Part shown: positions 4,346-37,309 of the stretch, piece by piece
Position numbering within the stretch: the stretch's first letter is position 1
How the letters are laid out: every line of letters starts with the position of its first letter
Assembly: GCA_036505795.1 (NCBI GenBank)
Contig: DASXSU010000095.1
Coordinates: 18,242 to 82,241, forward strand
Direction: 5' to 3'
Length of the DNA: 64,000 nt
Source of the DNA: Nitrospirales bacterium
GTDB taxonomy: Bacteria; Nitrospirota; Nitrospiria; Nitrospirales; NS-4
Made by a program: the position numbers and the translations under genes
The notes under the pieces: model-generated
Seen by the model: only the letters and a program-made list of their open reading frames with translations
Databases searched by the model: none
Told to the model about the DNA's origin: nothing

Positions 4346-4379
4346 ATGACGTTTATCTGTTACGCGCGATAGTCTACTG

Positions 4380-5210
4380 CTACTTCTTGATCGGTTTCGG
4401 GGTCTCCACGGCGCTATCCTTTAACGTCCCGAGATATGCGACAAGCTGATCGATCTCCTGATCCGACATCAATTCCTTGTACTTGTCCGGCATAAGCTTC
4501 TTGTTATATTCCTTTTCGAAGCCCTCGGCCATGTAGGCGCGGGGATTTAAAATTTTCTCCTTGAGCTCCTCGGGCTTCATCAGATTGCCGACATTGTCAA
4601 GATGAGGGCCTCGCTTCTTCAGACCGCCCTTGCCGCCTACCTTGTGACAGTTATAGCATTCCTGTAGATCGTACTGCTCCTGCCCAAGCGCCACGAGATT
4701 ACCCCCCGCCCCGCCTGCTTTGGGAATTCCGGGTTGGGCGCCTTTCGCTCCCGCTTCGCTCTCCTTAATTTGCGCGCCGCCGAGGGTCTCAAGCCGCTTG
4801 AGAATGGCGTGGCTTTGCGCGGTGAGCTCCTCCGTGCGTTTCAGCAGCTCATCGACCTTCCCTTTTTCCGTTGCCGCCATTTTCGGTTTGACGATTTTGT
4901 CGATCTTGCCCTTCTCAACTTGGGGATCATATTGCGGGAGTATAGTGGCCCCCGCGATAAAGACGCCCGAGATCACGGCATAAAAGAAGACAAGCGCGAC
5001 GACGGCCTTCAGCCCGTCGACCCGCGTCACCGGCGGGGCGTCGAGCAGAATGTACACCACCGTGCCCAAGAAGGCGTAAAACACGAACATGATCTGAAAT
5101 ACCTGGGGAAAGTGCATCAGGCGGGCAGCGATCACGAGCACGATCGCCGCGATGGCTCCCATCGCGATTCGGGAGACCAACAACCTTAACAGACTCTTAG
5201 GTGACGGCAT
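4380..5210 (-). CDS. membrane-anchored monoheme c-type cytochrome (class I)
   Basis: 276 aa with N-terminal TM helices, a coiled linker and a C-terminal domain carrying a single CxxCH (ECYNCHK). A distal Met context follows (KKLMPDKYKELMSDQEIDQLVAYL). It lies 2 nt downstream of oxidase A. Confidence 0.85.
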   Translation of the reverse strand: MPSPKSLLRLLVSRIAMGAIAAIVLVIAARLMHFPQVFQIMFVFYAFLGTVVYILLDAPPVTRVDGLKAVVALVFFYAVISGVFIAGATILPQYDPQVEKGKIDKIVKPKMAATEKGKVDELLKRTEELTAQSHAILKRLETLGGAQIKESEAGAKGAQPGIPKAGGAGGNLVALGQEQYDLQECYNCHKVGGKGGLKKRGPHLDNVGNLMKPEELKEKILNPRAYMAEGFEKEYNKKLMPDKYKELMSDQEIDQLVAYLGTLKDSAVETPKPIKK

Positions 5211-5212
5211 GC

Positions 5213-7018
5213 CTACTCCACCCCAGCAATTGCCGGCATGGCCTTCGGCGAAGCAGCATGCGCCTTCTCTTTACCGGTCTTCAGGGTCAAGATAATGGCA
5301 AAACTGACGATGATGTAAAAGGTGACTGTAATACCGGTGATCATCCAGCTGGAATAGCCCAAAGTCGGCGTGAACGACTCATTCGTAAAATCGTACTGAA
5401 GATTAAATACGTGAAAATACTTGCGCGTCAATTCCCGGACCGCGCCCATCAGCCCCATGGTCCAGATGGCGCTGAAGGCCAGGAATACCAATACAAACTG
5501 AGAGATAAAATCAATCTTGCCCCACACGATCCGCCCCGTGCGCAAGGCGCGGTTGTAAAGGATATAGTTCACGATTGTCACGAACACCAGCGTGAATGCG
5601 GCGGCGTTCTTGGCCGGCATCAGTGCGAGCATGTCCCATGAAACCGTGCCGAAGAAGCCCAGGTGCACCTCCCCGTGAGGCAGGCTGAGCGATCCATCGT
5701 CCGGAGCCAAGGCCTGTGTGGCAACAAACGCATGGGGGGTCATCCAGATCGCGTTCCCGATGATCACCATGAGGAAGGCAACCTTGACCATTGTCTGAGC
5801 AGAAACCGTCCAGGGTGTGATCTTTGCGATGATTAACCATACGATGACGTAAGCGGCCGGCGCGACCAACGACATGATGTCGGGAATGGGCCATTTGGAC
5901 CACATCAACATGAAGACCACCGGCACCGTGATCATTAACAGCATCGTAGCCGCCGACATCCGAATACGCTCTAGGCCTTCAATCCGTTTCATGCTCAGCC
6001 AGATATAGTAGTTACTGGCCAGAAAGATGAGCCCGACCATCGCCCCCTGCATCTCAAAGAACATCGACAACTGATCGGCCATCATGTACGGACAGATCGA
6101 GGCATCGTAATCGCAGAGCTCATACGCCAGCAGGTACCCGGCGAACGGCAACAGCAACAACGCGCCGACCCCGATCATATTGCCCACAAAACCAAACCAA
6201 TCGTAGAAGGCCCGGTCCTCATCGGTCTTCGATGCCATAAACATATACGCCGCGATCAACCCGGCGATGAACCCGCCGAACACCACATTGCCGACGGTCC
6301 GATGGATATTTAACGGCCACCAACTGTAGTTGTTGATCTTGTCCCACAGTGTCGCCACGGTCTCAATGTAAGTTTTGAGATCTATCCCTCCCTCCGTGGC
6401 TTTGACCGGGGTGTTCATGAACGAGGTAGGGCCGTCGATCACGAAGAGTGTGATAATCCCGATAACATTGAGGAGGACTCCGAGGGCGATATGGCGCATC
6501 TTCTTCGGGCCTTGCAATGCGTCCCAGGTATACCAGTACAGGTAGAGAACGATCGTCTCGCCGATGAATAACAGCGGGTAGATGATCGCGAAGAGCGCGA
6601 AGAAGTGATTGACCAGCCAGATGGTGAACTGGCCATAAGTCGCGAGCAGCACAAAGATGAAGAGCCCTCCCGTCAGGGCGGTCATGCTGTAGAGAATGAC
6701 CGTGACCTTGGTAACCTCTTTGGCTAATCGCTCGTAGCGCCCGTCTGCGCTCTTCCATCCCAGAAATTCACTGATGACGATGAAGATCGGCGCGCCGAGG
6801 ATGAAGGCGGCGAACAGGATGTGCAGCTGGGCCACGACCCAGACGGCTGCGCGATTGCCGCCCCAGGGGAAACTATGCGCTTTGGGTTCCGGCAATTGGG
6901 CGTATGCGGCGGCTCCTCCAATGAGCAGAAGGCCTACGGCAATGAGAAGAGATCGGGGGAAAAGCGTGCTCCATTGAATGTTTCTTTCAGGCACCACAGG
7001 CGCTCTCTTCATCGTCAC
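5213..7018 (-). CDS. cytochrome bd-like oxidase, CydA-like membrane subunit (paralog A)
   Basis: 601 aa and polytopic. VVAQLHILFAAFILGAPIF matches the CydA helix-1 His, LFIGETIVLYLYWYTWD the conserved Glu, and WWPLNIHRTVGNVVFGGF the heme b558 His equivalent. There is no long Q-loop and no adjacent cydB. Confidence 0.85.
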   Translation of the reverse strand: MTMKRAPVVPERNIQWSTLFPRSLLIAVGLLLIGGAAAYAQLPEPKAHSFPWGGNRAAVWVVAQLHILFAAFILGAPIFIVISEFLGWKSADGRYERLAKEVTKVTVILYSMTALTGGLFIFVLLATYGQFTIWLVNHFFALFAIIYPLLFIGETIVLYLYWYTWDALQGPKKMRHIALGVLLNVIGIITLFVIDGPTSFMNTPVKATEGGIDLKTYIETVATLWDKINNYSWWPLNIHRTVGNVVFGGFIAGLIAAYMFMASKTDEDRAFYDWFGFVGNMIGVGALLLLPFAGYLLAYELCDYDASICPYMMADQLSMFFEMQGAMVGLIFLASNYYIWLSMKRIEGLERIRMSAATMLLMITVPVVFMLMWSKWPIPDIMSLVAPAAYVIVWLIIAKITPWTVSAQTMVKVAFLMVIIGNAIWMTPHAFVATQALAPDDGSLSLPHGEVHLGFFGTVSWDMLALMPAKNAAAFTLVFVTIVNYILYNRALRTGRIVWGKIDFISQFVLVFLAFSAIWTMGLMGAVRELTRKYFHVFNLQYDFTNESFTPTLGYSSWMITGITVTFYIIVSFAIILTLKTGKEKAHAASPKAMPAIAGVE

Positions 7019-10049: not shown

Positions 10050-12980
10050 TCAGTGGTCCTCACGGCGCGTCCCCTCCGGGTTCGGCAAGGAGTCCGGATT
10101 GCGCTCCAGCCTTACCGGCAAATTGACCAAAAAGGTCGTGCCCTTCCCGATTTCGCTTTTGACTTCAATATATCCGCCATGGGCAACGATAATCCGCTGA
10201 CAGATAGGCAGACCCAGGCCCGTGCCTTCGCGCTCTTTGCTTTCGTGTTTGGTGGTAAAAAAGGGCACAAAAATGTTGTCCAGCGTCTCCGGCGGCATGC
10301 CGCATCCGGTGTCCGTGATCTCGATCTGCACCCATATGCCGTCCGGCTTCATTAGAGGACAGGTTTTCGTGATGATCTGGCCGACTCCAGCTGGCTCCAT
10401 AGCATCGAGGGAGTTGATGTACAGATTCCCCAGCACCTGACGCATTTGCTGGCTATCCATCCAGACATGCGGGAGGTTTTCGGCCAATTCCGTGCAGAGG
10501 GCCACGCCCTGGCTTTGGGCCCTGGCTTCGATCGCGAGCTGCGAGGCGGCGACCAGGTCATTGAGGTTCTCCTCTTGCCGCTGGGGCTCATGGAGACGCG
10601 CAAACCCCAAGACCTCCCCTGAGAGCCGTTCAATGCGGGCAGAATCGTTCATCACGACCTTGCGGAACTCTTCCATAAATTCTGGATCGTCCTTTCGCAT
10701 CGGCACGAGTTCCAGAAACGTGTTGATGGAGACCAGCGGATTACGGATCTCATGCGCAAAGCCGCCGGCAATCGTCTCGAAGGCGTGCGCGCGCTCATCG
10801 TGCTTCTCGCGGCGCTGCACGTCCTTCTCCAGCTGATGGAACGCTGCATTCTCAAAAGCGCTCGCGGCACTTGCCGCCAGAATCGACAAATTCTTAAGAT
10901 CCTCGTGCGTATACATCCCGCGATTCGGCTTCGGCCCCAGATTGATAAAGCCGATTAGAAGGCCTTGATTTTGGAGCGGTAGACATAACTCTGCTTCCAG
11001 GTCATCCAGTGTCCCGATGATGCGTTTGCTGAAGACGCCGGGTGTATCACCCCTTCGCTCCAATTCCTCTTTCAGGATGGCTTGAGACCTCTCCTGAAGG
11101 TACTGGGGTAAAAGTTCTTTAGCGCTGATCGTGACGGCTTTCAGCCGAGGCTTATTAATACCGTGGACAGCGGCCAAGATATACTCGTCCTTTTCCTTAT
11201 CGAGCAGAAAGATCGAAATCTTTCCAATGCCCAGAGCCTCGGAGAGGATGGAGACGGTTTTCGCCGTTAAGGCCTTTAATTCCAGGATGCTCCTCATGGC
11301 GGTACTGAAGGCATTCAGGGCATCGTAGGTATTGTGTTGGTGAGGGAACAAGGCCTTGCCGACTACTTGCTCCATTCCTTTGCGGACATTCACCAGCAGC
11401 TCGGCCAACACTATGAGAATGGTCAACAGCACACCCGCGAGGAGATAGTAGGTCGTCCCGGTAAAGATCCATACCACGCCGAGAATGACGAAGTAGGCCG
11501 GGGTCAGAGCGAGCGCTTGAGCGTATGGAAGCACGTCCGTCCTTGGAAGCCAAGGGCTCTCCAGAAATTCATACGCCACGATCGCATACATGACGATACT
11601 GATCCAGAGACCGACAAATACAAATCCAATGGGATAGAACTCCGCCCCGTAGGCTTGCGCGAAGTCAATGGACGCGAGATAGCCGATGGCAAAGGCCACC
11701 AAAACATATTTAATTCTCGTGGCCTCTGCGGGGGCATCGGCCGTTTTGGCCTTAAACCCGCGATACAATGCAAGCAGCGAGAGCCCACTCACCGTACCGA
11801 AATACCCAAGAAAGAGGGGATACAGCGCGCCAGCCTTTAAATAGACCCCCCAGTCATGCACATAGCGACCGCTGATTAGGTAATCAGTCGGAATGAGCGC
11901 TAGGAAGCCGGTGCTGATTATGTACTGTACGACGACGCTTATCTTCTCGTCAGAACGTTTCAGAAACCTCATACAGAAATGATAAAAGAGGGCTGGAATG
12001 AAGACGACCCCCACATAGGCCATTTTTCCCCACAGGACCGCCTCCCCTTCCTGTGGTGAAGAGAACATCATGAAGATGCTGAACAACCAGATGCAGACGC
12101 CGGCGCAGAGCAGCCCAAAAGTGAGGTTGACATCATTTCGCGGATTCTTCAGCACAATCCAGAGGCCGCAGCCAAAGACAAAAGACGCAGCCACCAACGG
12201 CGGGATCGCATAAGCGGTGGCGCGATGGCTGACCGCGACAGTTAGAAAGACCGGGACCAGCAGTGCGCCGAGGAGCAGCGCATATGTAAGTCCCTTTTGG
12301 AATACTACCGTAATGTCCATCAACCGATAACGGGCAATGGCATACGTCGTGATGATTGGATACGCCATGATCCCGAAGTTTCCGTACGGATATAAATCAA
12401 TCTTGAAGATGGGCAAGTAGTCGAGCGAGCCTGTGCCGTAGGCTAAGGCGAAGGCTATAAAGAAATACTTAAACTGGTTGCGCTTTATACCTGAAGCATG
12501 ACGATACAGTCTAAAAACTTGGTAATGGGCATAAATAACGAGCCATGCCCACCAACAGAAGAAGAGAACAAATAATGCGGATCCTGGCACCGCGTAATAA
12601 AATGCTGCAAAAAGAAATCGCACATTTCCAAAAAACAATGATGAGAAACCGATGAGAGGAAAGAGCAGCGTTGCGATTATATAGTTAATGACAACGAGCT
12701 TCCTTTGGGTTAGCGCACAAAAAATGGTCACAAAGTGGTAGAAGAAAACCGGTATCCAAACGACGCCAAAGGCAAAAGAGAAGCGCCAGGCCAACAGGGC
12801 TTGGTGCGGATCCTTCTCCAGGGCAATCCATGTCGCGCCGATGCCCCAGACAGCGACGGACGCAGTAAACAGCAACCATAGTCTGTTTAACTTGGCTCGT
12901 TTGTCCTGCGCGAGGACAAAGAGTCCCATAGCCAGAGAGCTGGCGGCTGTTAAAAGTCCCGATAGTGCAAAGGCATTCAT
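10050..12980 (-). CDS. sensor histidine kinase: tandem 7TM sensor modules, GAF, HisKA, HATPase_c
   Basis: 976 aa. About 480 aa of membrane domain consist of two collinear 7TM modules. A GAF-like region (ISIFLLDKEKDEYILAAVHG...LPLQNQGLLIGFINLG) follows, then the H-box FAHEIRNPL and ATPase motifs (ITDTGCGMP, GTGLGLPICQRIIVAHGG). Confidence 0.9.
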   Translation of the reverse strand: MNAFALSGLLTAASSLAMGLFVLAQDKRAKLNRLWLLFTASVAVWGIGATWIALEKDPHQALLAWRFSFAFGVVWIPVFFYHFVTIFCALTQRKLVVINYIIATLLFPLIGFSSLFFGNVRFLFAAFYYAVPGSALFVLFFCWWAWLVIYAHYQVFRLYRHASGIKRNQFKYFFIAFALAYGTGSLDYLPIFKIDLYPYGNFGIMAYPIITTYAIARYRLMDITVVFQKGLTYALLLGALLVPVFLTVAVSHRATAYAIPPLVAASFVFGCGLWIVLKNPRNDVNLTFGLLCAGVCIWLFSIFMMFSSPQEGEAVLWGKMAYVGVVFIPALFYHFCMRFLKRSDEKISVVVQYIISTGFLALIPTDYLISGRYVHDWGVYLKAGALYPLFLGYFGTVSGLSLLALYRGFKAKTADAPAEATRIKYVLVAFAIGYLASIDFAQAYGAEFYPIGFVFVGLWISIVMYAIVAYEFLESPWLPRTDVLPYAQALALTPAYFVILGVVWIFTGTTYYLLAGVLLTILIVLAELLVNVRKGMEQVVGKALFPHQHNTYDALNAFSTAMRSILELKALTAKTVSILSEALGIGKISIFLLDKEKDEYILAAVHGINKPRLKAVTISAKELLPQYLQERSQAILKEELERRGDTPGVFSKRIIGTLDDLEAELCLPLQNQGLLIGFINLGPKPNRGMYTHEDLKNLSILAASAASAFENAAFHQLEKDVQRREKHDERAHAFETIAGGFAHEIRNPLVSINTFLELVPMRKDDPEFMEEFRKVVMNDSARIERLSGEVLGFARLHEPQRQEENLNDLVAASQLAIEARAQSQGVALCTELAENLPHVWMDSQQMRQVLGNLYINSLDAMEPAGVGQIITKTCPLMKPDGIWVQIEITDTGCGMPPETLDNIFVPFFTTKHESKEREGTGLGLPICQRIIVAHGGYIEVKSEIGKGTTFLVNLPVRLERNPDSLPNPEGTRREDH

Positions 12981-13200
12981 GTACGCGATAGCTTCCCTAC
13001 ATAGTAGGGCTCAGAGTGGCAGGATTCAGGGCAGATCGTGGCTGCAATTGGATTACATGGAAGCGATATCAAGCCTATCAAGTGGCAATAGTAACGCGAA
13101 GGGCCTCCGAGGTAAAGTCCGATTGCCAGATATTCCGTGTTGCAGTCGTGGAGAGGGCAAGCGTTCGTTCTAAAGCTCAGCCCTCTCCGACGACCTCAAG

Positions 13201-14481
13201 CTATACGAGATGAACTCTGTGTTCTCCCTTCCGAGAGCCGGAGCCATAAAACGCGTAACAAGCCTCTAAGGCAAGAAAGAGGTATTCCAGGCTCCGTTGA
13301 GCAGCATGGGTCACTTTTTGTTGGATCTCTGAAGTGGTCGCGTGGAGTTTCATAATCTCCAGCGCCTGATATGGATGCAGATCATCATATGCAGAATGAG
13401 CTTCCATCCACATATAGGCTCGCTTGTCTAAGAGGACCCCATCCTGACCTTGGTATTTCATAAATCCCTTGACCATGATGGTGGCGATGCCTTGCGTGAC
13501 GCCTTCAATTGCATAGTTCGTCGCCGCCACAGCCTCGACAAAGCTACCTCTGTTGGTGATCGACCACATCCAATGTGTCAGAGCTTCGACTTCGAGAATA
13601 ACCGGCGTTGTAAATAAGTCTTCTTTGGGTACGCCGAATCCCTTGGCCATATCAATCCATTGATCCGCATGTCGCTTTTCGACTCGCAGATTATCGATTA
13701 AAAACCCTCGAGACATTGGATCAGTAGCTTTGGCTAGGTACGTGGCCATGAACTGGGGAAAGAGCTCGATGAATGGGTAAAACTGAATACTCCATCCTTT
13801 GACCTGTTCCAGAGACAGAGCGCCGCTTGCTGTTTCCTGTACCAATTGTGATTCCCAAATCGCTTGGCGGTACGGCGCCAGATAGTGGTCCATTTCCAGC
13901 ACCCAGGCCGGATCGGGAGTGAACTTCCGGTTTTTCTTCTTTTGCCGCGGAAGAACCTGCTCGGGGCTAGTCGAAAATGTCGTGTCATCGCTGACACTCG
14001 AGGTTCCATGTACAGCAGCCTCGAGGGCAAGACTGTCGGTGGAAATATGAATGGCGAGAAACGCTTTCCCCAGGGCTTCGGCGTTAGTCGTGAGCTCGGT
14101 GACCGCAGAGACCAACAGGGTAGTTTCCCACTCTCTTAAAGCAGCAAATTTTATTCCGGTCATATAGCCCACGGAGGTGTCGCTAGGTCTGCAATAGACG
14201 ACCTGCCCTACCACATGTAGCTGAGCGGCCCCACCTAAACAACAGCGCAGCATGAGCGGAGTGCCGGGAGCCAAACAGACCTCCGACATAAGTCTGAGGC
14301 CTGTCGCGCTAATATTTACGGTATGACCCGGTACGCCGCCTTCCCATCTCTCAAGGCGAAGCTCGATCTGGAGATCGTCCCGCTGGTACGATCGTCGTTC
14401 AACGCCGGCATAAGGCTCTTGCAGCATAACACTCCCTGTTAAAGACGCGGCCTCGCCGTTGGACTTGTGTGTTGAATACAT
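13201..14481 (-). CDS. PilZ domain fused to a heme-oxygenase-like (TenA/PqqC/UndA-type) putative diiron oxidase
   Basis: 426 aa. PilZ motifs are R30-SYQ-R34 (RxxxR) and N56-ISATG (D/NxSxxG). In the C-terminal helical domain I see E268-KR-H271 (ExxH), E326 (AIEGVTQ) and H362-SAY-D366-DL-H369 (HxxxDxxH). That is the ligand spacing I recall for UndA/CADD-type enzymes. Confidence 0.7.
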   Translation of the reverse strand: MYSTHKSNGEAASLTGSVMLQEPYAGVERRSYQRDDLQIELRLERWEGGVPGHTVNISATGLRLMSEVCLAPGTPLMLRCCLGGAAQLHVVGQVVYCRPSDTSVGYMTGIKFAALREWETTLLVSAVTELTTNAEALGKAFLAIHISTDSLALEAAVHGTSSVSDDTTFSTSPEQVLPRQKKKNRKFTPDPAWVLEMDHYLAPYRQAIWESQLVQETASGALSLEQVKGWSIQFYPFIELFPQFMATYLAKATDPMSRGFLIDNLRVEKRHADQWIDMAKGFGVPKEDLFTTPVILEVEALTHWMWSITNRGSFVEAVAATNYAIEGVTQGIATIMVKGFMKYQGQDGVLLDKRAYMWMEAHSAYDDLHPYQALEIMKLHATTSEIQQKVTHAAQRSLEYLFLALEACYAFYGSGSRKGEHRVHLV

Positions 14482-14938
14482 GGCGTACCTCTTTTCCTGG
14501 TCTGAATGCTCCCAACAAAAAGGAGACTATGGGAATGGGTAAAGTGCGTTCTTAGAAAGTTTCCCCAGAACGACCGAGAAAACGCTCGGGGGATGCGCAG
14601 GTACCGAAGCATAGTCTCTGAGGAATCCCTTTGCAACGTAAATTCGTAGGCAAAGGCTCTTAAAAGAAAAGTAAAAGAGGTAATTACCAACGAAGGAGGA
14701 ACACAGGATGCACTTTGATGACCCTCCGCCATGAGAAGCAATTTCGTGTCAGCTACGTCCTGAGTACGTAGCCGTTGTCGGTCCTCGGAGCGCATAAGGG
14801 TAATCGCTCGCTAACAGAATACCGTAGAGCCTAGCACCGTACGTAAGACTTTCGCAAGACCCCCTGCACCACAAGTTCTAAAGTAGTATCAGTAAGGATA
14901 CACGCACCCCAACCAGTGGTGTCCTCAATTCCATACAG

Positions 14939-17548
14939 CTAGGAGATACGGCGACTGATTCGTGACAGGCGATCGGGATAAGCGGCCTCGGCTGGGATGG
15001 AGGCAGTCGCCGCCATCGATCCCGATTTTGCGGCCACTGCAATATAGGCTTGGTTGGCAAAGGTGGTAAAAATCTGGACTTGCTCCGCGCCGCCGCTCAA
15101 AAGAAGCATCGCGAACTCCTGGCGGTCGAAAGAGCGAAAGCGTCCCTCGCTTTCCGCCTGCCGGAGATGGCCTGAATTATTCAGGAGCTCTCGAGCTTCA
15201 CCAATATCCTCGGTGGTCTCCGCGGTTCGAACGAAATTTCGATAGATCTGTGACAGGTCGGAGTTCGGTTTTAGGTTGGTCAGAATCAGCTTGCCGCCGG
15301 GACTCAGCACTCGCAGGAATTCACTGATCGTGAATGACGCGTCATCCAGATAGCCGAGGACAAGATTGCATACGACGCGATCAAACTCCCCGTTCGCAAA
15401 CGGCAGAGGCGCGTTCAAATTGCCACAGACAAAAGACGAGATCAGGTGCCGCTCCGGCGCAATCTGGTGAGGCCCCACCGGGGGAAGCGCCTGTTCCTGT
15501 AGCTCCAATTGAGCCTCTCGCAACGCAGCGGGCGCAACGTCCAGGCCCGTATACCGGATCAGCGGTACTCGACGGTCGTCCTTCAGGGCGCGATACTGCT
15601 GGTTCATCAGCAAGAACATGCCGAAATGTCCATTGCCGCAGCCCGCATCCAGTATACGCACTGCGGTTTCGCCGACTCCGAGATACCGGTACACGTGATC
15701 GAGCAGTTGCCAATAATCGTGCACATTCACGATGAAATGAGATCGACCGAGATACTCCTCCCAGAACTGAACATTCGTTGCCAACCCCATTTGGTAGTGC
15801 GCCCGCCCACGTTCCCGCTCCAAGCGACCCTGCTGAGCAATTTGGCCGGCAGCGGGCTCACGAATAATGGAACCTGGAATCTGTTCACCGAGCCGCCTCG
15901 CGCAGAGAGCGACAATCTCTCGAAACGTGGCGCGTGCCTTCCTCGGGTTTTCTGCCAGGCGATGAAGCGCCTCGGGAATCACCACCAACTCGCCCAACTC
16001 TGGGCCGATCGCGGTGATCACCTGTTTCACAGAATGCATGTCGACCCAGGCATCATGTTCGGCGGCGAACAAGGCGATCGGAACTTTGATGCCTGCAATG
16101 TCTCGTATCGTCGAAGTCAGATCCGCATAACCCTCGGCCGCCGCATTCTCTAGCCAGCGGTCCGCCTGAATATTCAATCCCAGCATATTAATGACTCCGC
16201 AATGCGCGCCGAGAAGATAGTCCTCGATCAGATCCTGTTGGTGCACGGCGCGCAAAGTCTGCCGCACATCGACCACCCCCGCGATGATCACCCCGAGGTC
16301 CACGCGCCGATCATGCGCCATAATCTTTATGAGCACCCGGCCGGCCAGACTCGCCGCGATGACAACCACCGGGCTCTGCGGGCACTCCGCCTTAACATAG
16401 CCCAGCGCGCTTGCCAGATCACGGTGCATGCGACCCAGGGTGGACTGGGTCGGCGCCCCCTCGCTTTCCCCGACGTGATTAGTGTGATCGTAACGGAGAA
16501 CTTGAAAACCGTTACAGGCCAAATAATACGATAGCGCAATGTATTCTTTCTTTGTCTCGCCATACCCTGGGACGACAATAACAACAGGATTGCCGGGCAG
16601 CAGCTCGTTGGACCGATCAAAATAGGCCGCAATACGCTGTCCAAGCTCGTTACGGAATTCCAGCGGCGTGCTGGTAATGCTCACCGCCGGCGACTGGGCC
16701 TCGGAGACTTCCCTCGCGGTTATCGCATCCTGAACGAGTTGCGCTATAGGTTGGGAAGACTCATTCACCCCAGGAAAAAATTGAACGCCCATCAGGCCCG
16801 ATGCAGCCGAAGCCCACACTACTCGACCCGTCAGGTTATGCCCTTGCTGAGCGTCGGTCTTTGAGGAACCGCTGTCCAAGCCATGCGCTTCGGGAAGAAG
16901 ACGGAGATTGAGATCATCCCCGGGTACCGCATGCCCGTGATTTCTGAGTAACACTCCGGTCGCGCTCACATCACAAGCTTCCGTCTCGACAATCTCATGG
17001 GGACCGGACGCGTTCGCCTGACCGAGCGTGACGCGCATCTTCATGGTAAGGCGCTGAACAAGCCGTCTTTCCTGCGGCCCAGCTTTGTGATCTACGTGCG
17101 TGCTGTCCAGATCATCGGGGCGCCGGGCAACCAGCAAATCGGCCGCATTGGGAGGAGCGAGCAACCCGGTCACTGTGAGGGAAACGCAATCCCTCCTCAG
17201 CCCGTCCAGCAAAGACACAAAGAGTTGCTCCTTGAGCGGATCGAGCGCGGAGAACTCAACGCCCATCCTCAACAAAGGCGCTGATCCGGCATCAGTGCTA
17301 TGCGGCATGAGACCGCGCACACGCCCGGAGAGTTGAAACACGCCTCCTTCGGCTTCAAGGCTCAGCTGAATCGTCTGATTCTCGGCGACACTGATCATTT
17401 CTTCGAAGATAAGGGACAATCCACCCTCACTAATATCCCAGGTACTTCCACGCCACATCGCGTCGTTGAGAAATAAGGTGGCATCCGAAGAGAGCAGCGT
17501 GCGAGCGCTTTGGCGGCGATTTGGGCGCATCAAAATCCTCCTGGTCAT
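14939..17548 (-). CDS. four-domain fusion: PilZ, PilZ, LuxD-like acyltransferase/alpha-beta hydrolase, class I SAM-dependent methyltransferase
   Basis: 869 aa. PilZ-1 has R12-QSA-R16 and D38-ISEGG; PilZ-2 has R162-LVQ-R166 and D193-VSATG. The LuxD-like core is NGFQVLRYDHTNHVGESEG, VVVIAASLAGRV (Ser400), FAAEHDAWV (Asp499) and EALHRL (His529). Methyltransferase motif I is RILDAGCGNGHF (aa 631-642), with VVCNLVLGYLDD and LSPGGKLILTN. Confidence 0.75.
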   Translation of the reverse strand: MTRRILMRPNRRQSARTLLSSDATLFLNDAMWRGSTWDISEGGLSLIFEEMISVAENQTIQLSLEAEGGVFQLSGRVRGLMPHSTDAGSAPLLRMGVEFSALDPLKEQLFVSLLDGLRRDCVSLTVTGLLAPPNAADLLVARRPDDLDSTHVDHKAGPQERRLVQRLTMKMRVTLGQANASGPHEIVETEACDVSATGVLLRNHGHAVPGDDLNLRLLPEAHGLDSGSSKTDAQQGHNLTGRVVWASAASGLMGVQFFPGVNESSQPIAQLVQDAITAREVSEAQSPAVSITSTPLEFRNELGQRIAAYFDRSNELLPGNPVVIVVPGYGETKKEYIALSYYLACNGFQVLRYDHTNHVGESEGAPTQSTLGRMHRDLASALGYVKAECPQSPVVVIAASLAGRVLIKIMAHDRRVDLGVIIAGVVDVRQTLRAVHQQDLIEDYLLGAHCGVINMLGLNIQADRWLENAAAEGYADLTSTIRDIAGIKVPIALFAAEHDAWVDMHSVKQVITAIGPELGELVVIPEALHRLAENPRKARATFREIVALCARRLGEQIPGSIIREPAAGQIAQQGRLERERGRAHYQMGLATNVQFWEEYLGRSHFIVNVHDYWQLLDHVYRYLGVGETAVRILDAGCGNGHFGMFLLMNQQYRALKDDRRVPLIRYTGLDVAPAALREAQLELQEQALPPVGPHQIAPERHLISSFVCGNLNAPLPFANGEFDRVVCNLVLGYLDDASFTISEFLRVLSPGGKLILTNLKPNSDLSQIYRNFVRTAETTEDIGEARELLNNSGHLRQAESEGRFRSFDRQEFAMLLLSGGAEQVQIFTTFANQAYIAVAAKSGSMAATASIPAEAAYPDRLSRISRRIS

Positions 17549-17980
17549 GACATGGACTTGTTAGGGGGAAAGAGAAACCGACGCGATCTTCCCCGACAAC
17601 TGCCGCCTTTGAGAGTGCTCGGGGCAGGTCTCAGAGGAGAACCCTGCCGCGCGAGGTGTATCTGTAAGGGCAACTACAGGATACGCAAGATCACCGCCAT
17701 GTCATTGACGGGCCATCCACTGTCCAATCAAGGTCTTATAACTAGGTAAAATCATCCATACGGTTCCCGGCCAACAATTTCCGGCAAACCGCGGACAAAA
17801 TTTGGTTATGATCAAGGAAACGCGGAGGGTATTGCGTGGTGCGGGTGCGGTAGAGCTGTCTAGTCATGACAGGATCTATCACAACCGCTCAGTGAGGAAA
17901 CTTCTCAGAAAACAAACAAACGGAAGCAAGGAACTGGCCTACGGCAGACGAATTCTAGAGGCGGGAAAAGACCCTGTATA

Positions 17981-18817
17981 TCAAGAAGAGACGGTCGGAA
18001 GCTTTTGGGCGAATGGCTCGACGGCCTGAACGCGCCGTGCTGTGAGCCCGAAAATATCAGCATACGCGACGCCGAACATGCATCCGGCCAGCGCCGTCCC
18101 CAACCCCAGGCCCATCATGGCGCCGCTGGCCACGCCGATCATCATTCCCATATTGACGACGGCGCCGCTCTCGGAAGGACCAAATGGCAGATCACTTAAG
18201 CTGACCTCCGGATAATACTGACTGAGAACCGCGCCGAGGGGCAGACCAAGCATGAGACTAAAGACAGCCGTTCCTCCGGCCATTAAAGCCACCATGAGTC
18301 CCGTTAATCCAGCCACCTTCCACCAGTTCTTGTTGACGACCCGACGGCTGGTCTCCAGGGCCTGCCACACGCTGAACCCGCGATCAATGATCAACATATA
18401 CGCAAATGTGTACGCCACTATCAAATAGATGCCCGGTAGGACGAACAGCAGCAAGCCACCCGCGATGAGCAGCAATCCAACGATTGTGCATAGAATCAAA
18501 TGTCCGATGGTGTCCCAATCCGGGAAGAAATCCACGAAACTGATCGGATCACTTCGCATCTGTTTCCATACCGCCATGGCAATGCCGGCCATCATGATCA
18601 CCTGGACCAGGGCACTGAGAAATTGACCGTAGACGTGTCCAAGCACCAAGGGCGCCTGAGACGCCACGGTGAACAAAAGTGCGAAGCCGAGGAACCCGGT
18701 TGGATAACGCGTGAAAGTCCGCCATCCTTCTCTGAGGTATTCCATCGGCCTGATGTGGTATCCGTGCACGATCAACTCTTCGACTGGTTTAGGTTCTGTA
18801 ATAATACGGTCAGCCAT
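17981..18817 (-). CDS. polytopic membrane protein, unknown function
   Basis: 278 aa with multiple Gly/Ala/Leu-rich TM helices (LGFALLFTVASQAPLVL, LILCTIVGLLLIAGGLLLFVLPGIYLIVAYTF). I am not confident of any family assignment. Confidence 0.55.
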   Translation of the reverse strand: MADRIITEPKPVEELIVHGYHIRPMEYLREGWRTFTRYPTGFLGFALLFTVASQAPLVLGHVYGQFLSALVQVIMMAGIAMAVWKQMRSDPISFVDFFPDWDTIGHLILCTIVGLLLIAGGLLLFVLPGIYLIVAYTFAYMLIIDRGFSVWQALETSRRVVNKNWWKVAGLTGLMVALMAGGTAVFSLMLGLPLGAVLSQYYPEVSLSDLPFGPSESGAVVNMGMMIGVASGAMMGLGLGTALAGCMFGVAYADIFGLTARRVQAVEPFAQKLPTVSS

Positions 18818-18923: not shown

Positions 18924-19226
18924 TTAGAGATGACCGCGAGCACGCGCCGCGGCTTCTATTCGCGCGGACTCCGCTTGCCGTTCGGACTCTTTTTTCTTGA
19001 TCCACGCTTCCCAGTCTCCTCCGGAAGCAGTGTCCTCACCGGTAAGGCTTATATCGACAATTTCAGAGTAAGAAATATGGCGGGGGGCGCTCTGCCCGTT
19101 GATATACATCTGAAGATAAGGAGACTCAGCGTCGGGGTTCCGGTTGAAGATGTACCCTTCAACATCCTCACCGGACTGTACATGAACCGTAACATCACCG
19201 CGGTAATGAAAGGCCTCTTCAATCAT
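18924..19226 (-). CDS. small hypothetical protein downstream of hpnH
   Basis: The track ORF (18924-19364) overlaps the hpnH 3' end. The internal ATG at 19226 (MIEEAFHYRGDVTVHVQSGEDVEGYIFN...) gives ~100 aa; a GTG at 19286 is an alternative start. No family recognised. Confidence 0.4.
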   Translation of the reverse strand: MIEEAFHYRGDVTVHVQSGEDVEGYIFNRNPDAESPYLQMYINGQSAPRHISYSEIVDISLTGEDTASGGDWEAWIKKKESERQAESARIEAAARARGHL

Positions 19227-19293
19227 CCGGGAGACTTCTTCCGGCTTGCTGCGCGATTGCGAATTATGGGCGATTGGGTTCACGGACACCTGA

Positions 19294-20310
19294 TTAACGG
19301 CTCGCGGGAGACAGGGTTGCAATGACCGTTCTGCCAAATCCCCTCCATGAACCGAAGGTATCATTCACTGCCGACGCTTCGTACCCGCAGTGCACCATAC
19401 AATCGGCGCATTTTTCGTGTCGGCCGCTCCCGTACTTGTCCCACTGCGTGTCCTCGATCAGCTCACGAAAGCTGCCGGCATAACCTTCTTGCAAGAGATA
19501 ACAAGGTTTCTGCCACCCAAAGATGTTGTAGGTGGGATTGCCCCAGGGGGTGCACTGATATTCGATCTTGCCCATGAGAAAATCCAGAAACAGCGGCGAT
19601 TGATTGAACCGCCAGCCCTTCCCCGGCCGATGGAGGATACGCGAGAACAGTTCCTTCGTCCGGTTGCGCTTAAGAAAATTCTTCTGATCCGGCGCCTTCT
19701 CATAGCTGTATCCCGGCGAAATCATCATCCCTTCCACGCCGAGTCCCATCATGGCATCAAAGAACTTTCGCACTTTCTCCGGATCCGCATCATCGAAGAC
19801 CGTGGTGTTTGTCGTCACGCGGAACCCTCGCTTCAGCGCGGCCTTGATTGCCTTGAGCGCGACATCATAGACGCCGTCCCGGCAGACCGCCAAGTCATGT
19901 TCGTTTTTGAGACCGTCCATATGCACGCTGAAGGTCAGGTATTTTGAAGGGGTATATTCATGTAGTTTGCGTTCCATCAGAATCGCATTGGTACATAAGT
20001 AGACATATTTCTTGCGCGCGACCAGCCCCTTAACGATCGTCGCCATTTCCGGATGAATGAGCGGCTCGCCGCCCGGAATGCTGACGATCGGCGCACCACA
20101 TTCCTCGGAAGCCGCCCAACACTGCTCCGGCGTCAGCCGCCGGTCGAGGACATGATCCGGATACTGTATCTTGCCGCAGCCGGCACACGCCAAGTTACAG
20201 CGAAACAGAGGTTCCAGCATCAGGACCAATGGATAGCGGCTGATCCGCTTTGCCTTCTGGGTCAGCACGTACTTCGTCACAGTAAACATCTGAGAGATTG
20301 GAACGGCCAC
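19294..20310 (-). CDS. hpnH: adenosyl-hopene transferase (hopanoid radical SAM protein HpnH)
   Basis: 338 aa. The radical-SAM CxxxCxxC is FRCNLACAGCGK. SIPGGEPLIHPE, YLCTNAILMERK and the C-terminal Cys cluster (CADCMVHCGYE) are typical of HpnH. Confidence 0.88.
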   Translation of the reverse strand: MAVPISQMFTVTKYVLTQKAKRISRYPLVLMLEPLFRCNLACAGCGKIQYPDHVLDRRLTPEQCWAASEECGAPIVSIPGGEPLIHPEMATIVKGLVARKKYVYLCTNAILMERKLHEYTPSKYLTFSVHMDGLKNEHDLAVCRDGVYDVALKAIKAALKRGFRVTTNTTVFDDADPEKVRKFFDAMMGLGVEGMMISPGYSYEKAPDQKNFLKRNRTKELFSRILHRPGKGWRFNQSPLFLDFLMGKIEYQCTPWGNPTYNIFGWQKPCYLLQEGYAGSFRELIEDTQWDKYGSGRHEKCADCMVHCGYEASAVNDTFGSWRGFGRTVIATLSPASR

Positions 20311-21163: not shown

Positions 21164-22504
21164 ATGAACGGAGATACCACGTTTCCCATGTTCCACCGAA
21201 TACCATTTCTTCCGCGGCAATTACTGATGGCCATAATCGCGGGGCTCGGCGCCTGGGCGAGCACGCGACTCATTGAGGAACGACATACCCGGTATGTCGC
21301 GGAGCGCCATCACGCTGCGCAACTGGCAGTGACGCGGGTGTTAGCGGAATCAGCCACTCTCGGAGAAGCAGCACCTCGCCTATTTGAAGCGATCTGCGAA
21401 GGCGAAGGCTGGGATTGGGGGGGAATGTGGGAAGTGGATGAGGACGCTCACCTGCTGCGTTGCCAACACGTGTGGCATTCCTCATTCCTGCCGCTCCCGG
21501 AGTTCGAACGGATGACACGCCAGACTAGTTTTCCCCGCGGCGTCGGGCTTCCAGGCCGAGTCTGGGCCACCGGCCAGCCTGCCTGGATTCCCGACGTCGT
21601 CAAGGATGAAAATTTTCCACGTGCCGCGGTCGCGCAAAAAGAGGGATTGCACGCGGCCTTTGGTTTTCCAATTCTGCTACGCAGGGAAGTCCTAGGCGTC
21701 ATGGAGTTCTTTAGCCGAGGCATCCGGCCGTCGGATGGATATCTGCTTTCGATGATGGCGGAGATCGGCGGAAAGATCGGTCACTTCATTGACCGACGCC
21801 GCGCGGAGCAGGCGTTGCGTAAAGCTGAAAACGACTTAGTAGAGTCAAAGCTTTCGGCCATGTTTCAAGTCGCCGCCGGCGTCGCCCACGAGTTGCGCAA
21901 CCCTCTCGGGGTTATTAGAAACTCCGCGTATTACCTAAAAACCAAGATGCAGGACGATCCGAAGATCGCCCGGCATTTTGAGATCATTGAGGAGGAAATC
22001 GCCGCATCGGATCGGGTGATCGACCAACTTGTCCACTTCGGCCGGCCGATACAACTCAACCCACACCCTTACGATGTTCATAGTATCATCAAGGATGCGC
22101 TCGCGGTCCTGAAAGTTCCTTCTGAGGTAAAGGTCGTGCTTCAGCTCGGCGCTCCAGCCGCATCGGTCCTGCTCGACAAAGATCACTTCCGCCGGGTCTT
22201 CATCAATCTCTTCCGGAATGCCCTGCAGGCCATGGACGGTAATGGAGAGTTGCGCATCGACACGGAAATCCGCGCACACGAGGTTCATATCAACATCACC
22301 GACACGGGAAAAGGTATCTCACCCCATCACCTTACGCGGATATTCGAGCCGTTTTTTACCACCAAGGCGAAAGGCATCGGCTTAGGGCTGGCGATTTCAA
22401 AACAAATCATTGAGCTGCACCGAGGCCGCATCGACGTATGGTCGAAACCGGGCTGCGGCACGGCGTTCAGACTTTCCCTACCGCTTGGCGAGGAGCGACC
22501 ATGA
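21164..22504 (+). CDS. GAF-domain sensor histidine kinase
   Basis: 446 aa with an N-terminal TM helix and a GAF domain (GVGLPGRVWATGQPAWIPDV...FPILLRREVLGVMEFFS). The H-box is VAHELRNPLGVI and the ATPase motifs are ITDTGKGISP and GIGLGLAISKQIIELHRG. Confidence 0.88.
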   Translation: MNGDTTFPMFHRIPFLPRQLLMAIIAGLGAWASTRLIEERHTRYVAERHHAAQLAVTRVLAESATLGEAAPRLFEAICEGEGWDWGGMWEVDEDAHLLRCQHVWHSSFLPLPEFERMTRQTSFPRGVGLPGRVWATGQPAWIPDVVKDENFPRAAVAQKEGLHAAFGFPILLRREVLGVMEFFSRGIRPSDGYLLSMMAEIGGKIGHFIDRRRAEQALRKAENDLVESKLSAMFQVAAGVAHELRNPLGVIRNSAYYLKTKMQDDPKIARHFEIIEEEIAASDRVIDQLVHFGRPIQLNPHPYDVHSIIKDALAVLKVPSEVKVVLQLGAPAASVLLDKDHFRRVFINLFRNALQAMDGNGELRIDTEIRAHEVHINITDTGKGISPHHLTRIFEPFFTTKAKGIGLGLAISKQIIELHRGRIDVWSKPGCGTAFRLSLPLGEERP

Positions 22505-22897: not shown

Positions 22898-24778
22898 ATG
22901 GACATCATCTTGTCGCCCACGCCGGTCCTGCTCGTTGACGATGACCCGCATGCCCGTGAAACGTTGCGGGACGTCCTTGAGAGCGATGGCTACAGCGTCC
23001 AGGCGGTGGGGCTGGGAGGCCAGGCTATCGAAGAGGTGCGCCGGCGACATTATGCCGCGGCGCTCCTCGATGTCCGGCTTCCTGATCTCGATGGTCTCAT
23101 CGTCCTTGAAATCCTTCTGCAGTTGGATTCCAAGCTTCCTGTAATCTTGCTCTCCGGATACGCGACTGTAGAGAACACCGTCCAAGCCCTGAACCGCGGC
23201 GCATTCGCGTATGTCCTTAAACCCTACAATCTCGATGAGGTAAAAGCGACGCTCCGGCGAGCTATTGAGATGAAGACGCTGGCAATGAAGGCCGAGCGGG
23301 CTGAGCTTCAGTTGCGGGAGAGCGAAGAACGCTTCCGATCAGTCGTGCAATCGGCGACGGACGCCATTATTCTCGCCGACGGCAGTGGGAGCATTTTATC
23401 CTGGAACAACGGAGCCCAGCGGCTCTTCTTCTATACCGAACAGGAGATTCTCGGCGAGCCGCTCACGCGTCTGATACCGGATCGCTACCACGCGGTCCAC
23501 GAACAAGGCATCGCGCGTGAAAAGTGCGGCGGCCAGCGGTGCATGGTGGGCAAGACTATCGAGATGCATGGACTTAGAAAAGACGGGACGGAATTCCCCT
23601 TGGAGCTGTCGATTGCGACCTGGCAGAGCAAAGACGGTTCGTTCTATAGCGGGATCATTCGCGATATTACCGAGCGCAAGCAAGCTGAGGAGGCCTTGCG
23701 GAAGGCGTATCATGAAACCGAAAAGATACTGTCAAGCCTGCCATCATCGATCTTTGTCGTCAACAAGAACCGGCAGATCATCTACGCCAATTCCCTCGCC
23801 TCTCATCATTTCGGCTCGGCGGGCGCGCAGATGACCGGCCGGTCCATCTTCGAAGTCCTTCCGATCCCATGCAACGAATGGGACCGGCTGGCCGCCAACC
23901 TTCCATGCTCCGCAACTCACAATGGGTATCTCCGGCATGACGGCGAGTTCGAAAGCCGGAAAAGCATCTATCAGTACTGCTTGTTCCCGGTGGCTCTGTA
24001 TGGCACAGACGAGGCCCAGACCGGGGTGGTCATTTCGGACATCACGGAGCAGAAGCAGCTCCAGGATCAGCTAATCCAAGCCGAGAAGCTGTCCAGTCTT
24101 GGTATTCTGGTCTCAGGAATGGCCCATGAAATCAACAACCCGATGCATGGCATCCTCGCCATGGCGGAGATTATTCTTGAAGAGACCGACCCGGAGAAAA
24201 TCAAGGAATACGCGCAAGATATTGTGGCGTATTCGAAGCATGCCGCGACCGTCGTGCGAGACTTCGCCTGCTACGCCCGTCCCGCTTCCCAAGACCGTGA
24301 GGTGGAGATTGACCTCAATGAGCGCCTCCTGGAGGCGGTCAAAATGGTGAGGCGCAATCCACAATTCGGTGATATTGAAGTCTTCAAGGATTTTGCAGCG
24401 CTTCCACAGCTCTGGGTACGGCGATCGGAGATCGACCAGATCTTCGTGAATCTCATCAGCAATGCCGCCCACGCGATGGCAGGTCATGGCCGCCTCACGC
24501 TGCGCACACGGGCCACTCCTGATCGCATTTCCGCGAGCGTCACCGATACCGGCAGCGGGATTCCGAAAGCGAATCTGATGCGAATTTTTGATCCCTTCTT
24601 CACGACAAAGGATCCGGGCAAGGGCACCGGCCTCGGATTGAGCATCGTGTATAAAATCGTGTCCAAATATGAAGGCACGATCACTGTGGACAGCGAAGAA
24701 GGCACAGGGACGACCTTCTCAGTCCATTTTCCCGTCATGAACGTATACCGGAAGGAGGCGCCTCATGGAGTCGCATAA
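22898..24778 (+). CDS. hybrid receiver-PAS-PAS-histidine kinase
   Basis: 626 aa. The receiver is LLVDDDPHARE...LLDVRLPDLDG...ILLSGY. Two PAS-like segments follow, then the H-box GMAHEINNPM and ATPase motifs (VTDTGSGIP, GTGLGLSIVYKIV). Confidence 0.88.
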   Translation: MDIILSPTPVLLVDDDPHARETLRDVLESDGYSVQAVGLGGQAIEEVRRRHYAAALLDVRLPDLDGLIVLEILLQLDSKLPVILLSGYATVENTVQALNRGAFAYVLKPYNLDEVKATLRRAIEMKTLAMKAERAELQLRESEERFRSVVQSATDAIILADGSGSILSWNNGAQRLFFYTEQEILGEPLTRLIPDRYHAVHEQGIAREKCGGQRCMVGKTIEMHGLRKDGTEFPLELSIATWQSKDGSFYSGIIRDITERKQAEEALRKAYHETEKILSSLPSSIFVVNKNRQIIYANSLASHHFGSAGAQMTGRSIFEVLPIPCNEWDRLAANLPCSATHNGYLRHDGEFESRKSIYQYCLFPVALYGTDEAQTGVVISDITEQKQLQDQLIQAEKLSSLGILVSGMAHEINNPMHGILAMAEIILEETDPEKIKEYAQDIVAYSKHAATVVRDFACYARPASQDREVEIDLNERLLEAVKMVRRNPQFGDIEVFKDFAALPQLWVRRSEIDQIFVNLISNAAHAMAGHGRLTLRTRATPDRISASVTDTGSGIPKANLMRIFDPFFTTKDPGKGTGLGLSIVYKIVSKYEGTITVDSEEGTGTTFSVHFPVMNVYRKEAPHGVA

Positions 24779-37216: not shown

Positions 37217-37309
37217 GGTTACGGTACGGCTTTCACAAGTCCTTGGCGACCCGTAGAACTCCTGAATTATAAACGTGTTTTTGGCTGCTGTCAAACAGTG
37301 CGACAGATA

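Follow-up and report, generated by a model that had tools for sequence, protein, structure and literature searches.

PilZ-fused LuxD-like and UndA-like enzymes of Nitrospirota adjoin a seven-transmembrane histidine kinase: a candidate c-di-GMP-gated lipid-signalling module

Background

LuxD is a myristoyl-acyl carrier protein (ACP) thioesterase that releases the C14 fatty acid, and in the Phc system of Ralstonia the phcB and phcS genes stand in one operon (phcBSR). The signal of this system, a fatty-acid methyl ester, is synthesized by PhcB, an S-adenosylmethionine (SAM)-dependent methyltransferase, and sensed by the histidine kinase PhcS (PMC8578825). Likewise, in the Rpf/diffusible signal factor (DSF) system of Xanthomonas, the synthase RpfF has thioesterase activity and converts acyl-ACP to a fatty-acid-derived signal, and its gene is clustered with those of the kinase RpfC and the REC-HD-GYP protein RpfG (PMC4542539, PMC3744752). 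Mid-chain fatty acids are also the substrates of the Pseudomonas 1-undecene synthase UndA, one of the heme-oxygenase-like diiron oxidases (HDOs), a group whose members studied so far require no protein effector according to a 2026 review (PMC13108848). Its product, 1-undecene, serves Pseudomonas as an intraspecific signal, for which no receptor is reported in the paper describing it (PMC10614000). Here we analyze two adjacent genes in a stretch of 64,000 nucleotides from a Nitrospirales bacterium (GenBank assembly GCA_036505795.1, contig DASXSU010000095.1), which is called the window below and supplies all coordinates that carry no other label. Gene 1 combines two PilZ domains, a LuxD-like alpha/beta hydrolase and a class I SAM-dependent methyltransferase, gene 2 combines a PilZ domain with an UndA-like HDO, and the pair is followed by the gene for a membrane histidine kinase with seven-transmembrane (7TM) and GAF domains.

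The window thus shares with the Rpf/DSF-like and Phc-like systems a putative synthase gene that is adjacent to, and co-oriented with, the gene of a membrane kinase. In relatives of this locus the gene logic of the Rpf/DSF system is found with all its parts, namely a candidate synthase, a membrane kinase and a REC-HD-GYP protein, whereas the window has no HD-GYP gene. The components themselves are different. RpfF is a crotonase-fold enzyme unrelated to the LuxD-like/methyltransferase and UndA-like enzymes described here, and the sensor is of the RpfC type there and a HisKA_7TM- and GAF-containing kinase here. Furthermore, cyclic diguanylate (c-di-GMP) would in the present case also act upstream, on the synthases, by way of the PilZ domains. 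The Phc system has no PilZ, LuxD-like or UndA-like parts, and its downstream regulators differ from those found here. PilZ-enzyme fusions such as the cellulose synthase BcsA are known, but the partners in the present families are an alpha/beta hydrolase-methyltransferase, a diiron oxidase, a 3-ketoacyl-ACP synthase III (KAS III) and an aldehyde dehydrogenase, with the PilZ domain placed N-terminally. A first-pass annotation of the window had known of no description of either of its PilZ-enzyme architectures, and two PilZ surveys and the 2026 HDO review indeed make no mention of fusions of the PilZ-UndA or PilZ-LuxD-methyltransferase type. Likewise, a literature search that combined PilZ with UndA, or that looked for hydrolase, oxygenase or TenA domains fused to PilZ, returned nothing relevant.

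Results and Discussion

A 7TM-GAF histidine kinase is the constant partner of both enzyme types

About 100 related Nitrospirota loci, designated by L numbers, were compared. The sample for PilZ-UndA comprised 17 loci from GTDB species representatives, together with several long contigs from metagenomes; that for gene 1 comprised 80 metagenome loci that collapse into 47 clusters, 34 of which were evaluable for the kinase. The first-pass annotation had covered the two enzyme genes only, and its coordinates for them, like their common orientation, hold exactly; it missed the kinase, which lies directly downstream of gene 2 on the same strand. A 7TM-GAF kinase adjoins PilZ-UndA in every evaluable locus and is downstream and co-oriented in all of them except L015, where it is divergent (the contig of L016 ends too early for adjacency to be judged). 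Similarly, genes of the LuxD-methyltransferase type have a same-strand kinase downstream in 32 of the 34 evaluable clusters, directly adjacent in 24 of those. Past the kinase of the LuxD-methyltransferase loci, a REC-σ54 activator is present in 16/24 and a REC-HD-GYP protein in 14/17, the latter being a c-di-GMP phosphodiesterase of the NosR family (203 bits).

This enzyme-kinase adjacency is strand-conserved across sequence identities of 29-100%. By way of a control, only 2 of 63 loci with a stand-alone undA gene, mostly from Pseudomonas, have any such neighbour gene within 4 kb; stand-alone undA is not kinase-linked, whereas the gene 2 family is always found beside a 7TM-GAF kinase where the locus can be evaluated. 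LuxD-methyltransferase genes without a PilZ domain are still linked to the kinase (for example in L008, L131, L150, L157 and L163), and therefore the linkage belongs to the enzyme core and not to PilZ. The universal partner of both enzyme types is the downstream 7TM-GAF histidine kinase. This partner, taken together with the σ54 regulator and the HD-GYP protein of the relatives, changes the picture of the locus, which now reads as a module for signalling instead of a free-standing pathway of metabolic tailoring.

Such a pathway had been the proposal of the first-pass annotation: two enzymes that form a self-contained route to olefins or methyl esters under c-di-GMP control, in which a LuxD-like release of the acyl chain is followed by UndA-like decarboxylation and/or methylation. 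On this reading the kinase would have no functional link to the pathway. The chemistry of the domains is compatible with it, and the gene pair does recur, since the trio of LuxD-methyltransferase, PilZ-UndA and kinase is present in at least eight other loci (L011, L012, L013, L019, L104, L105, L123 and L134), which makes the two genes syntenic beyond the window. Nevertheless, most loci of either family lack it. Among the PilZ-UndA loci fetched, only L011, L012, L013, L019 and the window have a gene 1 homologue upstream, and none is found next door in about 12 of the 16 evaluable ones, including the closest relative (77% identity, L001/L009), which has the flanking membrane-protein gene and the kinase as in the window. 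The LuxD-methyltransferase genes, for their part, mostly have no UndA neighbour. These loci rule out an obligate pairing of genes 1 and 2, and each enzyme by itself retains its kinase neighbour. Hence, we consider a two-enzyme pathway that stands apart from the kinase to be quite improbable.

Some of the compared loci show peculiarities of their own. L012 and L013, from the same metagenome-assembled genome (MAG; JBFJQA01, Nitrospiraceae), apparently represent two copies of the trio on separate contigs. In the MAG of the closest relative, the kinase is split into three open reading frames (ORFs; L001:11524-14417), and a gene 1 homologue with no adjoining kinase is split into parts of 710 and 163 amino acids (aa; L005:10001-12584). 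These split ORFs could be frameshifts caused by assembly errors or could reflect real decay.

Gene 2 encodes a specific homologue of UndA

The C-terminal domain of gene 2 had initially been likened to UndA and other diiron oxidases, and this assignment can now be sharpened to UndA itself. In addition to matches to the Pfam families Haem_oxygenas_2 (E 7e-13) and TENA_THI-4 (E 1.6e-10), a phmmer search of PDB sequences aligned residues 190-409 with UndA (4WWJ and 6P5Q) at E 1.8e-33 and 119 bits. The match extends over chain residues 19-246 of 263 and is thus close to full length; CADD and PqqC reached only about 33 bits in the same search. The AlphaFold2 (AF2) model has a mean predicted local distance difference test score (pLDDT) of 82, which exceeds 90 over the helical domain. 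When it was used as a query in Foldseek, the top seven matches were all UndA or its P. syringae orthologue, 3OQL among them, with template-modelling (TM) scores of 0.80-0.83.

All six metal ligands (E268xxH271, E326 and H362xxxD366xxH369) align with the 3H/3C set of UndA and are invariant in 115/115 homologues. Similarly, W358, which matches W190 of UndA (PMC13108848), is invariant in an alignment of 40 sequences. This domain is therefore a specific UndA homologue by both sequence and fold, and not merely an HDO-like protein, and it is predicted to act on a fatty acid as UndA does. An identity as CADD or PqqC was also considered, as the best NCBIfam model is that of CADD (64 bits, below its cutoff), and was overruled in favour of UndA by the PDB sequence and fold searches. 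UndA itself has neither the PilZ domain nor the linker that precede the oxidase domain in gene 2. At least 210 homologues of gene 2 were recovered, nearly all with the same architecture, and the PilZ-UndA fusion is confined to MAGs of Nitrospirota, one of which is labelled Deltaproteobacteria. Database annotations of the relatives of both genes are generic, such as 'PilZ domain-containing protein', 'iron-containing redox enzyme family protein' and 'PQQ biosynthesis protein C'.

Gene 1 joins a LuxD-like hydrolase to a class I methyltransferase

The LuxD structure from Vibrio harveyi (1THT) is the top match of the gene 1 hydrolase in both sequence and structure searches (phmmer E 1.2e-16; Foldseek TM 0.82, with an AF2 model of mean pLDDT 77.7), in agreement with the Acyl_transf_2/LuxD model of Pfam (E 2.7e-23, 83 bits against a cutoff of 20.3). 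The triad that had been proposed by analogy with LuxD is borne out by the 1THT alignment: Ser400, Asp499 and His529, in the strings AASLAG (398), EHDAWV (497) and EALHRL (526), align residue by residue with LuxD Ser114/Asp211/His241. Gene 1 of the window and 64 of the 89 aligned homologues have this triad complete, and the domain is predicted to act on acyl-ACP.

LuxD and residues 303-545 of gene 1 share the fold, the Ser/Asp/His residues and an HVGxSxG loop. In contrast to LuxD, to which it has about 21% identity, the gene 1 domain shares its polypeptide with two PilZ domains and a methyltransferase, and the Ser nucleophile is lost in many of its relatives. With 80.7 bits it also falls far short of the NCBIfam equivalog model for LuxD, whose cutoff is 420, and none of the scanned neighbours is a luxC/A/B/E-type gene. 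The hydrolase is thus LuxD-like and not a LuxD orthologue. The loop, H358-x-G-x-S362-x-G ('HVGLSSG' in LuxD; HVGESEG in gene 1, aa 358-364, 16456-16476), follows strand beta4 and is invariant in 89/89 homologues, being kept even where the Ser400 nucleophile is replaced by Asn, Gly or Asp.

In the C-terminal part of gene 1, five class I methyltransferase models of Pfam score above threshold (E 1e-9 to 1e-13), and the motif I string LDAGCGNG is found at position 633, with D634, G636, G638 and G640 near-invariant in the homologues. Among NCBIfam models, BioC (37.5 bits, cutoff 185), Mtf2 (23, cutoff 400) and the DVU_1556 family (53, cutoff 155) remain below their cutoffs.

The occurrence of an esterase-like and a methyltransferase domain in one protein beside a sensor kinase also brings to mind CheR/CheB-like adaptation, in which the two would reversibly methylate the kinase or another protein. 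Some gene 1 homologues have an N-terminal REC domain like that of CheB, and MapZ-CheR1 provides a precedent for a methyltransferase under c-di-GMP control. However, neither Pfam nor NCBIfam gives a CheR or CheB_methylest match, the hydrolase is specifically LuxD/acyl-transferase-like and lipase-like, and the co-occurring UndA, FabH-like, aldehyde dehydrogenase and acyl-ACP reductase-like enzymes act on lipids and not on proteins. This makes such an adaptation system hardly credible.

About 97 homologues of gene 1 were found, mostly in Nitrospirota, and some carry REC and PAS domains. Those at L011:5990-9583 and L019:6198-9746 are about 1190 aa long, as the methyltransferase is followed at the C-terminus by an extension of ~300 aa, for which Pfam gives no significant match. 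In the NCBI record of the same MAG, gene 1 starts six codons later, which gives a protein of 863 aa.

Three PilZ domains with intact motifs

All three PilZ domains have both c-di-GMP-binding motifs, RxxxR and [D/N]xSxxG: RRQSAR (11) with DISEGG (38) and RRLVQR (161) with DVSATG (193) in gene 1, and RRSYQR (29) with NISATG (56) in gene 2. These motif pairs, the two ORFs and the enzyme motifs quoted in the first-pass annotation are all present where it had placed them. Its calls of PilZ, LuxD-like, class I methyltransferase and heme-oxygenase-like domains are likewise confirmed by Pfam far above chance, and UndA and LuxD, which it had named for comparison of folds, are the best structural matches of the respective domains.

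The Pfam PilZ model (PF07238; cutoff 22.5) scores 67 bits over two stretches of gene 1 and 42 bits in gene 2. In both AF2 models the PilZ regions form a beta-strand barrel with a C-terminal helix, the barrel strands of the second domain of gene 1 spanning residues 171-257. Across the homologues of gene 2 the key positions are well conserved (R30 in 98/115, R34 in 105/115, D/N56 in 106/115 and G61 in 111/115). The corresponding RRSG pattern of the first PilZ domain of gene 1 is kept in 50/89 aligned homologues, the remainder being mostly gapped or without the domain. On the strength of these motifs, we infer that the three domains are c-di-GMP receptors. The coordinates of all features of the module are collected in Table 1.

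Table 1. Genes and domains of the module in window coordinates
Feature	Coordinates	Strand	Extent and key features	Basis
Gene 1	14939..17548	minus	869 aa; PilZ - PilZ - LuxD-like alpha/beta hydrolase - class I SAM methyltransferase	ORF list, Pfam, NCBIfam
Gene 1 PilZ domain 1	17207..17521	minus	aa 10-114; R12xxxR16 + D38xS40xxG43	Pfam PilZ E 1.6e-18
Gene 1 PilZ domain 2	16763..17077	minus	about aa 158-262; R162xxxR166 + D193xS195xxG198	Second Pfam PilZ stretch
Gene 1 LuxD-like acyl-ACP thioesterase/acyltransferase domain	15914..16642	minus	aa 303-545; Ser400/Asp499/His529 + H358-x-G-x-S362-x-G loop	PF02273
Gene 1 class I SAM-dependent methyltransferase domain	15029..15748	minus	about aa 601-840; motif I LDAGCGNG	Methyltransf_11/12/23/25/31
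Gene 2	13201..14481	minus	426 aa; PilZ - linker - UndA-like heme-oxygenase-like diiron oxidase	ORF list, Pfam
Gene 2 PilZ domain	14044..14400	minus	aa 28-146; R30xxxR34 + N56xS58xxG61	Pfam PilZ E 1.4e-10
Gene 2 UndA-like domain	13243..13914	minus	aa 190-413; ligands E268, H271, E326, H362, D366, H369; W358 = UndA W190 equivalent	
Histidine kinase	10050..12980	minus	976 aa; conserved partner	Pfam
Kinase double HisKA_7TM membrane region	11481-12980	minus		Pfam
Kinase GAF	10848-11279	minus		Pfam
Kinase HisKA+HATPase_c	10110-10763	minus		Pfam

A variable slot for fatty-acyl enzymes

The canonical operon of the relatives can be written as PilZ-LuxD-methyltransferase, an optional slot gene, 7TM-GAF kinase, REC-σ54 and REC-HD-GYP, in this order. 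The slot is filled by PilZ-UndA in the window and the eight further trio loci listed above, by a PilZ-FabH-like KAS III in L145 and its relatives (207 bits; L145:10814-12385), by a PilZ-aldehyde dehydrogenase in L140 (221 bits; L140:10692-12896), and in L121 and L138 by a protein that resembles long-chain acyl-ACP reductase and the reductase domain of PigE. In the 579-aa protein of L121 (L121:10776-12515) this resemblance lies in the C-terminal half, and the N-terminal 275 aa match no Pfam family. Judged from their sequences, all four slot types are fatty-acyl-processing enzymes. PilZ-UndA can also head a complete operon by itself, as in L002, where it is followed by the kinase, the σ54 regulator and the HD-GYP protein, and in L121 and L138 a tandem pair of modules is found, with one kinase to each module.

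The slot also bears on the hydrolase of gene 1. In all ten loci with a FabH-like, aldehyde dehydrogenase or acyl-ACP reductase-like slot gene the nucleophile position is Asn or Gly, and all four evaluable gene 1-type loci without the kinase are triad-degenerate. The contrast with the invariant loop would be explained if S362 were more important than had been supposed, or if the degenerate forms were scaffolds for acyl binding to which a second enzyme has been recruited.

The sensor domain co-varies with the enzyme type

Pairwise blastp comparisons and a neighbour-joining tree were computed for 48 non-redundant kinases. For the membrane-proximal 7TM domain, the median score is 180 bits within the LuxD-methyltransferase type and 155 within the UndA type, against 82 between the types. 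The GAF domains of the same kinases give 144, 150 and 146 bits and thus no difference by enzyme type. Further, the kinases with a short 7TM region separate cleanly by enzyme type in the tree. This co-variation of the 7TM domain with the enzyme is a pointer to a synthase-receptor relationship.

As a second such pointer, we found σ54-type promoters (GGCAC-N5-TTGCT) upstream of the LuxD-methyltransferase genes in 16 loci; with one undA locus included, 17 of 154 scanned windows match, against about 2.6 expected. The near-consensus sites are those of L008, L106-L113, L125, L137, L146, L147, L151, L154 and L159, which represent several lineages, and they fit autoregulation by the operon's own σ54 activator. 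A near-consensus site at L049:9878 precedes a stand-alone UndA-like gene on a Nitrospirales chromosome. Around genes 1 and 2 themselves, the counts of σ70 promoters and terminators do not exceed those of shuffled controls, and the region 12800-18200 has no Rfam match, to a c-di-GMP riboswitch or any other RNA element, up to E = 1.

A proposed lipid signal and the weight of the alternatives

We propose that gene 1, gene 2 and the kinase (10050-12980) form one module for the c-di-GMP-gated making and sensing of a lipid-derived signal, a proposal whose chances of being right and wrong we hold to be even. The LuxD-like domain of gene 1 would take a medium-chain acyl group off acyl-ACP, and the fused methyltransferase and/or the UndA-like oxidase of gene 2 would convert the fatty acid thus released to a product that is hydrophobic and can diffuse. 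This product could be a 1-alkene, formed together with CO2 by gene 2, and/or a fatty-acid methyl ester or other methylated lipid formed by gene 1. The three PilZ domains would tie these activities to the cellular level of c-di-GMP, and the double-7TM region of the co-encoded kinase would sense the product in the membrane. In most relatives, perception would then feed back on transcription by way of the σ54 regulator, and by way of the HD-GYP protein, which would lower c-di-GMP, on the PilZ-gated enzymes. Such a module would work in the manner of the Rpf/DSF and Phc systems, and it would suit the finding that 1-undecene acts as an intraspecific signal (PMC10614000). The window has a shortened version, with both enzymes and the kinase and with no adjacent regulator.

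Several observations weigh against this proposal. Regarding the chemistry, the identity of gene 2 to UndA is about 31-34%, so that its substrate could differ, and the gene 1 methyltransferase matches only generic class I relatives in the PDB profile and NCBIfam searches and no substrate-specific family above its cutoff. Moreover, UndA requires the carboxyl group of its substrate to be free, so that one simple fatty acid cannot be methylated at this group and decarboxylated in succession; the pair may yield two products or share a bifunctional substrate. Regarding the circuit, at the tblastn thresholds used the 64-kb window has no σ54 regulator and no HD-GYP gene, and a σ54 promoter was sought there and rejected, the best matches reaching only 8/11; therefore, the feedback loop is not encoded locally. 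Furthermore, the clade of long double-7TM kinases, which includes that of the window, mixes the enzyme types. Finally, the LuxD-like triad is degenerate in 25/89 homologues, including the four closest to gene 1 (Asn-Asp-Gln/His), while the H358/S362 loop is the invariant one, and thioesterase chemistry is therefore not universal in the family.

This last pattern would also suit a reading in which the enzyme-like domains are mainly accessory sensors, which dock on the kinase and tune it by c-di-GMP, fatty-acyl status, O2 or iron in a three-component system. The REC and PAS domains of some gene 1 homologues recall signalling proteins, and the PilZ adaptor HapZ, which binds the kinase SagS in P. 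aeruginosa, is a precedent. However, the invariant UndA ligands and the near-invariant motif I of the methyltransferase argue for retained catalysis, the kinase linkage survives without PilZ, and the FabH-like, aldehyde dehydrogenase and acyl-ACP reductase-like slot enzymes make up a chemically coherent acyl pathway. We therefore regard a mainly accessory role as distinctly unlikely.

The missing regulator of the window suits another explanation, namely remodelling of lipids or the envelope. The PilZ-enzymes would alter lipids or make hydrocarbons or esters with a structural or physiological role, for instance in the properties of the membrane or biofilm matrix, and the kinase, sensing for example the state of the membrane, would merely be co-regulated with them. 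The enzyme families are indeed ordinary families of lipid metabolism, and in the window and L006 the module lies among hopanoid, Mla and Omp85 envelope genes. Yet the hopanoid linkage extends to four loci only and is backbone synteny, the strand-conserved adjacency to a single kinase family holds over a wide range of divergence, and simple co-regulation does not predict a co-variation that is specific to the 7TM domain and absent from the GAF domain. Remodelling thus appears fairly unlikely to us.

If the module does make and sense a lipid signal, the UndA homologue is wired to one specific kinase, which becomes a concrete candidate for a 1-alkene receptor and suggests, for the first time, what the ligand of HisKA_7TM, a widespread domain that is so far uncharacterised, might be. 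The PilZ fusions would then represent a new class of c-di-GMP output, the direct allosteric control of fatty-acyl enzymes, including a diiron O2-activating oxidase. For Nitrospirota, which count the main nitrite oxidisers among their members and are key nitrifiers of soils and wastewater biofilms, this would amount to a lipid-based signalling circuit linked to the change from a biofilm to a motile lifestyle and back.

All parts of the module belong to known families; what is new is their combination, in which a 7TM kinase, a σ54 regulator and an HD-GYP phosphodiesterase are firmly linked to PilZ-fused lipid enzymes. More tentatively, and with doubt outweighing confidence, we suggest that Nitrospirota signal from cell to cell, or by volatiles, through a family of systems that has not been recognised before, in which c-di-GMP gates modular synthases (LuxD-like/methyltransferase, UndA-like, FabH-like, aldehyde dehydrogenase and acyl-ACP reductase-like) through PilZ and dedicated HisKA_7TM kinases are the receptors. 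If this were right, the kinase would be the first receptor of this kind for a 1-alkene or fatty-acid methyl ester, its ligand would be the first ligand class for the HisKA_7TM sensor domain, and gene 2 would be the first HDO enzyme under a fused second-messenger receptor. The variety of the slot enzymes (UndA, FabH, aldehyde dehydrogenase and acyl-ACP reductase-like) would constitute a natural experiment in the possible joint diversification of receptors and the chemistry of their signals.

Genomic surroundings of the module

Directly upstream of gene 1 is a gene for a 278-aa multi-pass membrane protein (17981-18817) with weak matches to DUF308 and the BPSS1780 family. The same membrane-protein gene is found beside PilZ-UndA in L001. 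Farther out is an ORF of 146 aa (18924-19364) with no family match. A minus-strand respiratory cluster at 2334-7018, which encodes cytochrome b, a Rieske protein, cytochrome c and a protein like subunit I of cytochrome bd, likewise flanks the module in L001. The window further contains hopanoid and isoprenoid genes, namely HpnH (544 bits), GcpE/IspG and squalene-hopene cyclase, along with Omp85 and DUF3187 (19294-20310, 36041-37294, 37310-39612 and 43304-45466). This hopanoid/Omp85 backbone is common to the window and L006, in which the LuxD-methyltransferase module comes right after GcpE. A functional link to hopanoids was considered and set aside, with HpnH present only in the window, L001/L009, L006 and L019. 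Of the window ORFs scanned, none was recognised as a response regulator that has an output domain. Two more sensor kinases are encoded on the plus strand, with the architectures GAF-HisKA-HATPase (21164-22504) and REC-PAS-HisKA-HATPase (22898-24778). Farther along are an Lhr-type helicase of 1425 aa (27426-31703) and an SMC protein of 1187 aa (45627-49190).

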